Below are positions 8,612-11,687 of a DNA stretch of 64,000 nt, in pieces; the first letter of the stretch is position 1, and the number at the start of each line of letters is the position of its first letter. The translations under genes and the position numbers were made by a program. Under the pieces are notes generated by a model, which was not told where the DNA came from, searched no databases, and saw only the letters and a program-made list of their open reading frames with translations. Location: contig MGMG01000081.1 of the NCBI GenBank assembly GCA_001796355.1, positions 196-64,195 on the forward strand. The letters run 5' to 3'. Source of the DNA: Chloroflexi bacterium GWB2_54_36. Lineage in GTDB: Bacteria > Chloroflexota > Anaerolineae > Anaerolineales > Anaerolineaceae.

Positions 8612-9961
8612 TTAATGGTTTTGAGCGATCGTGTTATACCGTTTCCACGTTTCTTTGGAAAGCCGGCGCGCCTCGTACGTGATTTTTTCTTCGTCCAAAG
8701 TGAGCAACTGCCGGTCGCGCATGAGCACTTTCCCGCCAACCATGGTGGTAGTCACCATGCTCTCATGAAAGCCAAAAATGATATGCCACGGCAAGTTGCC
8801 AGCGTCTAGTTCGGTAAAGGGGTGATAGTCAACAAAAATCAGGTCCGCTTCCGCCCCTGGCGCCAGAACACCGATAGGCCCGACGCCAAATTGCTGCTCT
8901 GCCAACAGTGCGTTGTTGTAAACTGCCATCTGGACCACATCGGTGCCAGACATGCGACGCGGGTCATGGTTCCATAGTTTATGCGCCAGGTAAGCGGTCT
9001 TCCATTCCTGCCACATTTGATTGGAGAAACCGTCATTCCCCAGACAAACCTTGATGCCCGCTCGCATCATGGCTTCCGGTTGAGACATGCCAACTGCGTT
9101 ATTCATGTTAGACCGCGGTTGATGGGTAACCCAGGTCTGACTGGCTGCCAGCAGTTCGATTTCACGGACATCGACGTGCACGGCGTGCACCGCTATCGAG
9201 CGCGGACCAAGAATACCATGCCGCTCCAGCCGGTCCACCACCCGCTCACCGCATTTTTGCAAGCTGTCGTATTCATCCACCGGATGTTCGGCGACATGGA
9301 CATGGAAACCGACATCATCCGGGCAAGCCACCCGGCAGGCCTCAAGGGTTTTTTCCGACAGGGTCAAGCTGGCATGCAGGCCAAAAGTAGCTGCCAGCTT
9401 GCCGCTTTTATCCGCCTTTACGGCGTTGATAAAGCGGACATTCTCGGCGATGCCATCTTTTGTGCCCTGCTCCCCCTCGCGATCGGTGACTTCATAGCAG
9501 AGCGAGGTGCGAACCCCGGCTTCCTGGACTGCCAGCGCTACTTCCGTCAGTGAACCACTGATTGCATTAGGCGAAGCATGGTGGTCTATTAGCGTGGTTG
9601 TGCCGTGTTTAACCGCATCGATCAGACATACCAGCGCCGAGTAGCGTACATCCTCCAGCGTGAGGGCTTTATCCAATGACCACCATAATTTTCCCAGAAT
9701 TTCAGGAAAATCTTTGGGCGCCGGTCCCGGGATTCCCATACCCCGCGAGAATGCTCCATAGAAATGAGTGTGCGCGCAGATATTCCCAGGCATGATATAT
9801 TGGCTATGCGCATCCAGACGTTCTTCCTGCGGGTATTTTTCGAGGATTTCGGTTTGTCTGGCAATTTCAACGATCTTGCTTTCTACAATTCGCAGCGCGT
9901 ACCCTTCAAGAATGCGATTAGGTTGTTCCCAGGTGATAATCTTTCCGTTGGTAAGTATCAT
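8612..9961 (-). CDS. ssnA: SsnA-like metal-dependent amidohydrolase
   Basis: MPGNICAHTHFYG, LWWSLDKAL, GTTTLIDHHASP, FGLHASLTL, HVHVAE, HQPRSNMNNAVG and LGNDG; RBS GGAGGG upstream. Confidence 0.88.
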   Translation of the reverse strand: MILTNGKIITWEQPNRILEGYALRIVESKIVEIARQTEILEKYPQEERLDAHSQYIMPGNICAHTHFYGAFSRGMGIPGPAPKDFPEILGKLWWSLDKALTLEDVRYSALVCLIDAVKHGTTTLIDHHASPNAISGSLTEVALAVQEAGVRTSLCYEVTDREGEQGTKDGIAENVRFINAVKADKSGKLAATFGLHASLTLSEKTLEACRVACPDDVGFHVHVAEHPVDEYDSLQKCGERVVDRLERHGILGPRSIAVHAVHVDVREIELLAASQTWVTHQPRSNMNNAVGMSQPEAMMRAGIKVCLGNDGFSNQMWQEWKTAYLAHKLWNHDPRRMSGTDVVQMAVYNNALLAEQQFGVGPIGVLAPGAEADLIFVDYHPFTELDAGNLPWHIIFGFHESMVTTTMVGGKVLMRDRQLLTLDEEKITYEARRLSKETWKRYNTIAQNH

Positions 9962-9999
9962 GGCTGCCCTCCAGAAATGATGGCCAGTATTTTAACGAC

Positions 10000-10027
10000 A
10001 CAAAACCGAAAGGTAAACCTTTCGGTT
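10000..10027 (-). terminator. Terminator-like hairpin in the ssnA leader
   Basis: Perfect 10-bp stem AACCGAAAGG-TTTA-CCTTTCGGTT running into TTGTGT on the minus strand, about 40 nt upstream of the ssnA ATG. It could instead be an operator. Confidence 0.6.
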
Positions 10028-10102
10028 AAACGACCTGCTATTCGCATCAGGCGAACCAGGATAAATCGGAACAGTGAAAAACGAAGGGAATTTGATTGTC
10101 AT

Positions 10103-10200
10103 AGGATCGGTGGAGAAGGAAGGCGGCGCTTTTCGACGGGCACTTCTCATCCGGCCCGACGCCAGCCAAGCAAGTGCTTGAACTGACCACCGAACCCTGC
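10103..10200 (-). ncRNA. Candidate structured leader RNA (riboswitch-like, no family recognised)
   Basis: Closing stem AGGGUUCGGUGG/CCACCGAUCCU, hairpin CAAGC-ACUU-GCUUG, nested stems GGCGU/GCGCC and CGGGC/GCCCG, and complementary loops ACUU/AAGU. G-U pairs occur only in the minus-strand reading. Confidence 0.4.
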
Positions 10201-10204
10201 ATAT

Positions 10205-10231
10205 ATTTTAGCATAAAGCGGTTGTTGTCAA
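10205..10231 (-). promoter_or_regulatory. Putative sigma70-type promoter of the ssnA-F420-xdh operon
   Basis: Minus strand TTGACA-N15-TAAAAT with extended -10 TG; predicted start near 10200. Confidence 0.55.
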
Positions 10232-10310: not shown

Positions 10311-11687
10311 ATGGATCCGCGCACCAAAGCGCTCGAATATGCCGTTTCGCATCAGGCTGAATTCCTCGAACAACTCAAAGATTTGATCCGCATGCCGTCG
10401 ATTTCGACGGCGCCCGAAAATAACGGGGATGTGCAAAAAACTGCGGAGTGGCTGGCGCACAAGCTGACCCGGATTGGCATGAAGAATGTGCAAATCCTGC
10501 CAACCGGCGGGCACCCGGTGGTTTACGGCGAATGCATTTGCGCTCGGGAAAAAGCCCCGACTGTTTTGGTTTATGGACATTACGATGTGCAGCCGGCCGA
10601 TCCGCTGGAGTTATGGACAGCTGAACCTTTTACTCCCGAACAGCGCGGTGAAAACCTGTACGCCCGCGGCGCATCTGACATGAAGGGTCAGGTGATGGCC
10701 AGCATTGATGCAGTCGAAGCGATTATGATGTCAGGCGAACCGCCTGTTAATATCAAATTCATCCTGGAAGGCGAAGAAGAAATTGGCTCGCCTAACCTGG
10801 TCCCATTTATTAAGGCGCACCGAGAACTGCTCTCCTGCGATGTGGCGCTCAACCCGGACTGCGGCATGATCGGCGCGGATGCGCCAACCATTACTTACGC
10901 GCTGCGCGGTTTGGCTTATTTCGAGCTGCGTCTTTACGGCCCGGAGCACGACCTGCATTCAGGGCTTTACGGCGGGGCAGTCCATAATCCAGCGATTGTG
11001 CTGGCTGAATTGATCGCCGGTATGCATGATGCAGATGGTCGCATTACCTTACCCGGATTCTACGACCGCGTGCGGTCTCTGGACGCCGAAGAGCGCGCTC
11101 AGCTCGCCCGATTACCTTTATCTGAAGCTCACTTCCTTGCCATGACCGGCGTTTCAGCGCTTTTTGGCGAAAAAGGGTACACCCCGGTCGAGCAGGTTGG
11201 AGCCCGTCCCACGCTGGATGTAAACGGCTTATACTCAGGTTTCATTGGCGCCGGATCAAAAACAGTTCTGCCAGCTTATGCCATGGCGAAGATCTCCATG
11301 CGTCTGGTCCCTGACCAGGACCCCGCCGAAGTCCAGGATCAGTTGATCGCGTACCTGAACGCCAAAGCTCCCAAGACAGTACGCTGGGAATTGACTAACC
11401 ACTCCTCCAGTAAAGCCTCCATATCCGATATTCACCACCCGGCCGTTAAGTCACTGGTGGATGGGTTGGCAGCAGCCTGGAAAACCGCGCCACTTTACAA
11501 GCGTGAAGGCGGCAGCGTGCCGATCGTTGGTGATATGCAGCGAATTCTAGGCGTGGAGTCCGTTTTAACCGGTTTTGGACTGTCGGACGATAATATTCAC
11601 GCTCCGAATGAAAAACTGCACCTGCCGACCTGGTATAAAGGCATCCAATCGTTGATTCATTTCTTCTACAACTACGGGCAAGCTTAA
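10311..11687 (+). CDS. M20-family dipeptidase
   Basis: YGHYDVQP, RGASDMKGQ, EGEEEIGS, DLHSG, EGGSVP and NIHAPNE. Confidence 0.92.
   Translation: MDPRTKALEYAVSHQAEFLEQLKDLIRMPSISTAPENNGDVQKTAEWLAHKLTRIGMKNVQILPTGGHPVVYGECICAREKAPTVLVYGHYDVQPADPLELWTAEPFTPEQRGENLYARGASDMKGQVMASIDAVEAIMMSGEPPVNIKFILEGEEEIGSPNLVPFIKAHRELLSCDVALNPDCGMIGADAPTITYALRGLAYFELRLYGPEHDLHSGLYGGAVHNPAIVLAELIAGMHDADGRITLPGFYDRVRSLDAEERAQLARLPLSEAHFLAMTGVSALFGEKGYTPVEQVGARPTLDVNGLYSGFIGAGSKTVLPAYAMAKISMRLVPDQDPAEVQDQLIAYLNAKAPKTVRWELTNHSSSKASISDIHHPAVKSLVDGLAAAWKTAPLYKREGGSVPIVGDMQRILGVESVLTGFGLSDDNIHAPNEKLHLPTWYKGIQSLIHFFYNYGQA

Follow-up and report, generated by a model that had tools for sequence, protein, structure and literature searches.

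The NMT1 xanthine riboswitch binds xanthine and urate and shuts down translation by masking the ribosome-binding site; it folds as a two-stem junction, is confined to Proteobacteria and is not associated with genes for the degradation of oxidised purines (PMC7373994). In the reductive degradation of uric acid, XdhD-YgfM converts urate to 2,8-dioxopurine, after which SsnA opens the ring (Li et al. 2025, PMC12507026); in Chloroflexota, an F420-type luciferase-family enzyme takes the place of YgfK (PMC12507026). We have analysed a 64,000-nucleotide (nt) stretch of contig MGMG01000081.1 of Chloroflexi bacterium GWB2_54_36 (hereafter, the window; all coordinates are those of the window, and leader features are read on the minus strand). 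In it, a 349-nt intergenic gap separates a divergent M20 peptidase gene (10311-11687, plus strand) from an ssnA-type amidohydrolase gene (9961-8612, minus strand). The gap contains the ssnA leader, the 5′ domain of which is, on comparative sequence evidence, a real three-way junction of about 100 nt (P1/P2/P3) with the invariant core elements GGUC, GGCGU and YCGAAAAGNRCCGC. We assign it to a conserved family of cis-regulatory RNAs of Anaerolineales that had not been catalogued before, and consider it a riboswitch candidate. The reading that we favour, and which we hold to be somewhat more probable than not, is that closure of P1 would block an AUG at the 3′ end of the RNA, and that translation of the upstream open reading frame (uORF) beginning there would then decide on termination before the ssnA operon.

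The Rfam family RF03031 (ssnA RNA, a cis-regulatory candidate known from other bacteria, with a model of 48 positions) is likewise found in the leaders of ssnA and purine-hydroxylase genes, but the present RNA is twice as long, forms a three-way junction, would gate a start codon and does not match that model. With RF03031 at its gathering score of 37.3 bits, there was no match in the window and none genome-wide even at E ≤ 1; 121 Anaerolineales genomes gave no match, a search in which no control genome scored above the cut-off either. The likeness to NMT1 lies in the link with purine catabolism and in the predicted action on translation, but the P1-P2-P3 architecture and the Anaerolineales host differ, the two-stem junction with conserved J1-2a, J2b-2a and J2a-1 strands that defines NMT1 (PMC7373994) is absent, and Rfam returns no match. 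The purine riboswitches (guanine and adenine, with the xanthine, 8-oxoguanine and 2′-dG variants) share the three-way junction, the approximate size and the connection with purine metabolism; they differ in that here the L2-L3 kissing loop is absent, the junction sequences are others, and J3/1 is long and carries a Shine-Dalgarno (SD) sequence, again with no Rfam match.

Rfam 15 (4227 models), searched at gathering thresholds, identified only a tRNA in the window and nothing in 18 representative loci, and at E ≤ 10 it returned noise only (small nucleolar RNA, FinP and long non-coding RNA fragments, ≤14 bits). Resemblances to ZTP, Moco, purine and NMT1 motifs were considered and set aside, being without Rfam support. 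A first-pass annotation, made from the letters of the window alone, had been unable to match the leader to any known riboswitch consensus; the Rfam search agrees, and searches of the literature brought up no account of such a motif.

A Three-Way Junction That Runs into a Start Codon

BLASTN, alignments, a covariance model and RNAalifold together delimit the RNA to 10198-10100. The 5′ strand of P1 (10198-10187) pairs with its 3′ strand (10113-10103), directly after which comes the invariant AUG (10102-10100). P2 (10185-10163 in total) consists of CAAGC-ACUU-GCUUG (10180-10167) extended by CAG/CUG (10185-10183 with 10165-10163), and is followed by GGCGU (10163-10159), by P3 (10158-10137; inner helix CGGGC/GCCCG, 10158-10154 with 10141-10137), by the invariant joining strand UCGAAAAGCGCCGCC (10136-10122) and by a pyrimidine linker (10121-10114). 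The family consensus reads [A/U]UCGGYGG-UC-[P2]-GGCGU-[P3]-YCGAAAAGNRCCGC(C)-[linker]-CCRCC..GAUCC-AUG, where the linker often holds a small hairpin and an SD sequence.

Conservation detected with BLASTN is confined to 10217-10095, i.e., the -10 box and the RNA up to the AUG, and extends to 21 of the 22 genomes of the genus and to one other genus; identity over this segment is 73-92%, and the flanks cannot be aligned. Folded as a single sequence, the RNA domain does not exceed its shuffles (z = -1.35 and -1.43), so that support for the structure comes from the comparison with relatives. Aligned with MAFFT, 24 sequences show pairing in 92% of the cells under the P1/P2/P3 model, against at most 49% in slid-partner controls, with double changes at nine pairs. 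Compensatory double changes at 16 of 23 pairs (259 cells) were found in 61 further sequences, the alignment of which was fitted to the covariance model and leans towards structure. RNAalifold independently recovers all three helices, and G-U pairs occur on the minus strand only (e.g., pair 47-61 is UG in nine sequences), which fixes the strand. P1, the core of P2, the orientation drawn from G-U pairs and the expectation of covariation in homologous leaders had all been put forward in the first-pass annotation, and each is upheld by the alignments, P2 being longer by the CAG/CUG extension.

For P3, the inner helix stands as it was first drawn, but its outer extension GGCGU/GCGCC does not: relatives (L034, L052, L080) show C.A and G.A/G.G cells that break the pairing GCGU/GYGC, which we therefore rejected. 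Alternatives for the outer part are C40-G68/G41-C67 across a U.U mismatch, or GCG/CGC; all of their columns are invariant. A kissing interaction between the P2 and P3 loops, likewise proposed earlier, also fails. The complementarity of ACUU and AAGU in the window is at the level of shuffled loops (P = 0.54), the genus-wide complementarity sum is 68 against 62.5 ± 3.3 (P = 0.06), and the mean complementary run over 99 sequences is 2.58 against 2.57 for shuffles; moreover, in close relatives the P2 loop reads GAUU and the P3 loop is unchanged.

Two further pairings were noted. GAGAAG in the P3 loop (10147-10142) is perfectly complementary to CUUCUC in the linker (10118-10113). A pseudoknot of the two was rejected, as it is kept in the closest relatives and G012 and not in the G007, G010 and G017 groups; the match is probably a coincidence, the loop being rich in purines and the linker in pyrimidines. 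The GGYGG of the P1 5′ strand, for its part, can pair with CCGCC of the invariant core (-10.4 kcal/mol) in every sequence, both sides being invariant; this is a candidate switching helix, formation of which would free the AUG.

The leader domain is conserved and structured, with covarying stems and invariant joining strands, as in riboswitches. The invariant unpaired core would fit a binding pocket, and the compact build, in which joining strands are conserved and stems vary freely, is typical of aptamers; from this anatomy, a small molecule probably stabilises the fold. The RNA could instead be the binding site of a regulatory protein, either a translational repressor or a moonlighting enzyme of the pathway, with the same downstream logic. 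An invariant single-stranded core of 15 nt and a very stable P1 (-16.0 kcal/mol) would suit protein-recognised leaders equally well, but no conserved gene for an RNA-binding protein was seen beside the motif in the loci inspected, and the contrast of fixed joining strands with variable stems is the one typical of aptamers; we regard a protein site as unlikely.

The RNA as the 5′ End of the Messenger

Upstream of the RNA, an extended -10 box (TGCTAAAAT, 10213-10205) and a -35-like TTGACA (10231-10226) would place the start of transcription near 10200. Within the genus of the window, the -10 box shows little or no variation, and in about 24 of 30 diverse loci a TGnTAnAAT-type box occurs 13-17 nt 5′ of UCGGYGG; from this conserved spacing it follows that the RNA would be the extreme 5′ end of the mRNA. 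Of the promoter first annotated here, the extended -10 box is thus retained at its position; the -35 assignment is not, its spacing to the -10 box being only 15 nt.

Among 99 non-redundant representatives of the family, 93 have a start codon either directly after the P1 3′ strand (67) or inside it (26; the embedded form is CCACC-(N)AUG-AACC), and 55 of the 99 carry an SD-like tract in the linker enclosed by P1. Since the start codon lies at the end of P1 or within it, the folded state would block translation initiation. The frame that starts at the RNA is usually ygfM, encoding the FAD subunit of the XdhD urate reductase (290-300 amino acids; FAD_binding_5/CO_deh_flav_C), and the gene order after the RNA is FAD_binding_5, fused Fer2-Moco subunit, Nudix_N/NUDIX and amidohydrolase. 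Behind atypical copies lie genes for a Nudix protein, a DSP-type phosphatase, an FAD subunit or an amidohydrolase. Two copies are present in several genomes of the genus, one 5′ of a ygfM-type gene (with the SD sequence AAGGAG) and the other 5′ of ssnA. Genome G000 has the ssnA copy only and no close orthologue of the other FAD subunit.

The earlier proposal of a structured cis-regulatory RNA tied to purine and molybdenum-hydroxylase genes is thereby supported, by start-codon position and by gene association. What the first reading missed is the invariant AUG at 10102-10100, the uORF that links it to the terminator, and the main home of the motif, which is ygfM and not ssnA. Its other suggestion, an independent, trans-acting small RNA of about 200 nt (10200 to about 9995), we find scarcely credible. 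The leader does have a promoter and a terminator of its own, and once terminated it would accumulate as a small RNA; however, conservation is limited to the 5′ 100 nt, most genomes lack the terminator and have the RNA fused to the ygfM start codon, and the 93 representatives that abut or contain a start codon speak against it.

Some loci deviate in their gene content. At L041, L052 and L110, the RNA is followed not by ygfM but by the gene of a DSP-type phosphatase or of a Nudix_N/NUDIX hydrolase; the recurrent pairing of Nudix and phosphatase genes suggests that the pathway begins from a nucleotide derivative. The ygfM-type gene behind the L048 motif looks decayed (a stop at codon 187; GGTD and QQGR motifs altered), as does that of L079, where FAD_binding_5 and CO_deh_flav_C lie on separate short open reading frames. 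In G000, a FAD_binding_5 paralogue (G000:C15:4-534) is cut by the contig end, and the assembly therefore lacks its 5′ part and any leader; with an identity of 29%, this paralogue is not the orthologue of the motif-associated subunit.

Distribution in Anaerolineales

Searches with the covariance model R1 located the RNA at full length in 116 of the 401 Anaerolineales genomes sampled, representing 52 of 123 genera. A phylum-wide sample of 401 Chloroflexota genomes gave nine matches, all within Anaerolineales, and the RNA was found in no other order of that sample. In a pattern scan of 185,579 species genomes, 61 of 80 among the matches listed pass the covariance model. Among the matches listed, the passing loci, which are the 61 sequences scored for compensatory changes above, are labelled Anaerolineales, Anaerolineaceae, Anaerolinea, Thermanaerothrix, Ca. 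Villigracilis or “Chloroflexia” metagenome-assembled genomes, and the proteobacterial and actinobacterial ones fail.

In one genus of the same taxonomic family, a degenerate variant occurs 5′ of ssnA (L182; G176:C1:1874820-1875320, at about 240-330), reading UAUCGGAGGUC...GGCGUUGGCA..UGCCAUCGAAAAGCGCCCCG, with no recognisable P1 3′ strand, uORF or terminator. Three of the ssnA matches, G368:C3:79730-81082, G409:C3:309929-311281 and G277:C1:1346548-1347885, have one internal stop each (TAA, TAA and TAG, respectively), possibly in an upstream extension.

A Leader Frame That Reaches the Terminator

In pyrBI and pyrE attenuation in E. coli, a leader frame crosses an intrinsic terminator, and a ribosome that closely trails the polymerase prevents the hairpin from forming; the signal in pyrBI is UTP-dependent polymerase pausing. 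The ssnA-type leaders have the geometry of such translation-coupled systems, i.e., a leader frame that reaches or crosses an intrinsic terminator 5′ of the regulated gene, but differ from pyrBI in that a structured RNA would control whether translation of the leader frame begins at all. In the window, the uORF (10102-9992) begins at the invariant AUG, spans the terminator and comprises 36 codons plus a TAA (9994-9992) directly after the U tract.

The terminator (10027-9994), recognised by folding and conservation, consists of the hairpin AACCGAAAGG-UUUA-CCUUUCGGUU (10027-10004) followed by UUGUGUCGUU. It had already been described as a 10-bp hairpin with a tail upstream of ssnA (start at 9961), and is indeed one, with a UUUUGUGU tail: it folds better than its shuffles (z = -3.6), with a stem of -14.3 kcal/mol. 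A consensus terminator scan did not flag the hairpin at 10027-10004, probably because the U tract is interrupted. It is retained in about 20 leaders of the genus, including compensatory changes in the stem (AAAGG/CCUUU to AUAG/CUAU). Between the RNA and the terminator, minimum-free-energy folds show a spacer hairpin inside the uORF, CCUGGUUCGC-CUGAU-GCGAAUAGCAGG (10060-10034), at the position of which relatives carry a different CCGG...CCGG element.

Within the genus, the AUG of the ssnA-type leaders is invariant and the uORF peptide is not conserved. The frame is open over at least 23 codons in 20 of 20 genus leaders, the other two frames in about half of them; up to the terminator, it is open in all 12 lineages, against 5 of 12 for each of the other frames. 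When spacers were shuffled, the joint chance of this outcome was about 3e-7 if all 12 lineages are taken as independent and about 5e-6 on a conservative count of nine (the outcomes being binary, the joint probability was used in place of a Fisher combination), figures that are optimistic because the lineages are related and not fully independent.

The length of the uORF (11-63 codons) and the sequence of the terminator both vary, yet the stop remains near the terminator. Throughout the genus and in the other lineages it falls between 12 nt before the stem and 67 nt past the stem start. Eight leaders have it 1-11 nt before the stem and L031 has it in the loop; in the rest it lies beyond the hairpin, 30-67 nt past the stem start. 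G021 has a spacer of 190 nt and a uORF of 63 codons that stops 5 nt before the hairpin. In leaders of the Thermanaerothrix type (L030, L031 and L098), the terminator, CGCCCGUG...CACGGGCG, is an unrelated one, and the uORF stops within its loop or shortly behind it; in the Anaerolinea-like genus, uORFs of 11 and 12 codons end 11-12 nt before a third kind of terminator (two genomes, read by eye). L035 (G298:C16) is arranged differently: the TGA of a 64-codon uORF shares bases with the TTG start codon (TTGA) of the gene for a 2Fe-2S subunit, which is preceded by GGAGG, and the overlap suggests translational coupling instead of terminator control.

These frames bear on two other explanations. One is that, in the genus of the window, the RNA and its AUG are the remnant of a former ygfM start, the uORF having no function and the hairpin being a constitutive or otherwise regulated attenuator. 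The N-terminal peptides of uORFs (MTIK, MAIK and MPIT) resemble those of ygfM products (MTIW, MNIW and MPIY), which suggests that the uORF descends from the ygfM arrangement. A remnant is nevertheless very improbable, as the RNA in ssnA leaders is under strong purifying selection, judged by its identity among unalignable flanks, the AUG does not vary, and the frame is open to the terminator in every lineage. The other is an inverse, trp-like attenuation, where a translated uORF would abolish an antiterminator and so promote termination, with a sign opposite to that of the ygfM-type leaders. The stop 1-12 nt before the stem in at least eight lineages would be compatible with it, given that a terminating ribosome could leave the hairpin free; however, at least 11 leaders read through the hairpin (stops at +30 to +67), where a translating ribosome must melt it, and neither the folds nor the genus leaders revealed a conserved antiterminator. 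We give this inverse scheme little credence.

A classical riboswitch with terminator and antiterminator was also considered. In the first-pass annotation, the folds of P1 and of the terminator were mutually exclusive: in an open aptamer, UUCGGU of the P1 5′ strand would pair with ACCGAA of the terminator 5′ arm. On such a reading, the AUG and uORF would be irrelevant. That complementarity is present in the window, and the terminator core CCGAAAGG/CCUUUCGG is conserved within the genus where the spacer is not. But the pairing amounts to 6 bp and -8.0 kcal/mol, and it must replace helices of -16.0 (P1) and -14.3 kcal/mol (terminator); constrained folding with the P1 3′ strand blocked still yields the terminator. 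There is no covariation either: the P1 5′ strand of G005 and G021 has changed to UCCGGU and the terminator arm has not followed, and the unrelated terminators of the Thermanaerothrix-type and Anaerolinea-like leaders lack such complementarity altogether. As it also leaves the invariant AUG and the open frame unexplained, we consider this classical arrangement very unlikely, and the mutual exclusion is not sustained.

The terminator itself retains a peculiarity. Its stem core CCGAAAGG...CCUUUCGG is near-invariant in the genus and the preceding spacer of 70 nt has diverged fully; the arms resemble the strands of P1 (ACCGA and UCGGU), and no explanation that we tested accounts for the conservation of the core.

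A Proposed Mechanism and Its Weak Points

We propose the following for control by P1 and the uORF, where both the folded state as OFF and the suppression of termination by uORF translation are inferred from the geometry of the leaders. The RNA would begin a few nt after the transcription start and fold, hiding the start codon and, where present, the spacer between SD sequence and AUG. For the copies before ygfM (in ygfM-xdhD-nudix-ssnA operons), it would act as a plain translational switch. In the genus of the window, in Thermanaerothrix and in the Anaerolinea-like genus, the operon has been rearranged, and the AUG now opens a short uORF ahead of ssnA. With the AUG free, a ribosome trailing the polymerase would cover or melt the 5′ arm of the terminator, and transcription would proceed into ssnA-npdG-cofE-cofC-LLM-ygfM-xdhD (LLM, the luciferase-like oxidoreductase gene). 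With P1 closed, the uORF would stay untranslated, the hairpin would form, transcription would end near 9995, and the operon would be off. The ygfM-type and ssnA-type arrangements would, therefore, respond in the same direction.

Blocked translation of the first frame leads to premature termination via Rho in the mgtA, ribB and lysC leaders. The present leaders differ from these Rho-linked riboswitches in having an intrinsic terminator, i.e., a hairpin and a U tract, inside or beside the uORF.

Candidate ligands to begin with can be taken from the genes under control: urate, 2,8-dioxopurine, xanthine, and an 8-oxopurine or nucleotide derivative. The ligands suggested in the first-pass annotation, a purine, a deazaflavin or a Moco-related compound, are guesses. 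That the RNA constitutes a new riboswitch class responding to urate, to 2,8-dioxopurine or to an oxidised purine or nucleotide related to these is a tentative proposition, to which we give distinctly less weight than to the control of termination by P1 and the uORF.

Several observations weigh against the proposed control. The uORF of the window has no SD sequence, though G035 begins a real ygfM from the same SD-less context. A P1 as long and as stable as calculated here (-16 kcal/mol) would be unusual for a ligand-stabilised helix, and a repressing ligand is counter-intuitive for a catabolic operon; the xanthine riboswitch NMT1 is likewise an OFF switch (PMC7373994). Stops 11-12 nt before the stem (G012 and the Anaerolinea-like genus) leave the ribosome at the edge of the hairpin only, and the relatedness of the lineages, already mentioned, tempers the joint probability. 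Lastly, the motif is not universal: it is degenerate in one genus and absent from another, and about 20 genomes of the family have no match to the RNA model, yet ssnA is present in 32 of 33.

The Operon Downstream

The ssnA-type gene (9961-8612) is preceded by the SD sequence GGAGGG (9972-9967). The genes that follow on the minus strand, assigned by Pfam scan as was ssnA, are npdG (8593-7916), cofE (7899-7129), a 2H (2′-5′ RNA ligase-like) phosphoesterase gene (7117-6569), cofC (6446-5832), a gene for a luciferase-like (F420-type, LLM) oxidoreductase (5772-4774), a 4HBT thioesterase gene (4777-4298), a ygfM-like FAD subunit gene (4301-3543), an xdhD-like Fer2+Moco subunit gene (3524-492) and xdhC (469-2), which leaves the window at its edge. 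The Pfam scan also places the divergent M20 peptidase in the same family as YgeY of the urate pathway, listed as PF01546 (PMC12507026). The operon corresponds to the form that the gene cluster for reductive uric-acid degradation takes in Chloroflexota (PMC12507026). Neither the 2H phosphoesterase, encoded between cofE and cofC, nor the 4HBT thioesterase, encoded between the LLM gene and ygfM, has an assigned role in the published urate pathway.

Implications

The reductive urate pathway of XdhD-YgfM and SsnA was resolved biochemically only in 2025. An RNA that sits on the start codons of urate genes across a whole order offers a concrete and testable regulator for it, with a short list of candidate ligands, and experiments are feasible, as at least one cultured carrier exists (Thermanaerothrix solaris 4228-RoL). 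If the passage of the uORF through the terminator has the function that we propose, it would mean that a translational RNA switch can become a transcriptional one upon rearrangement of its operon, without the need for a new antiterminator.

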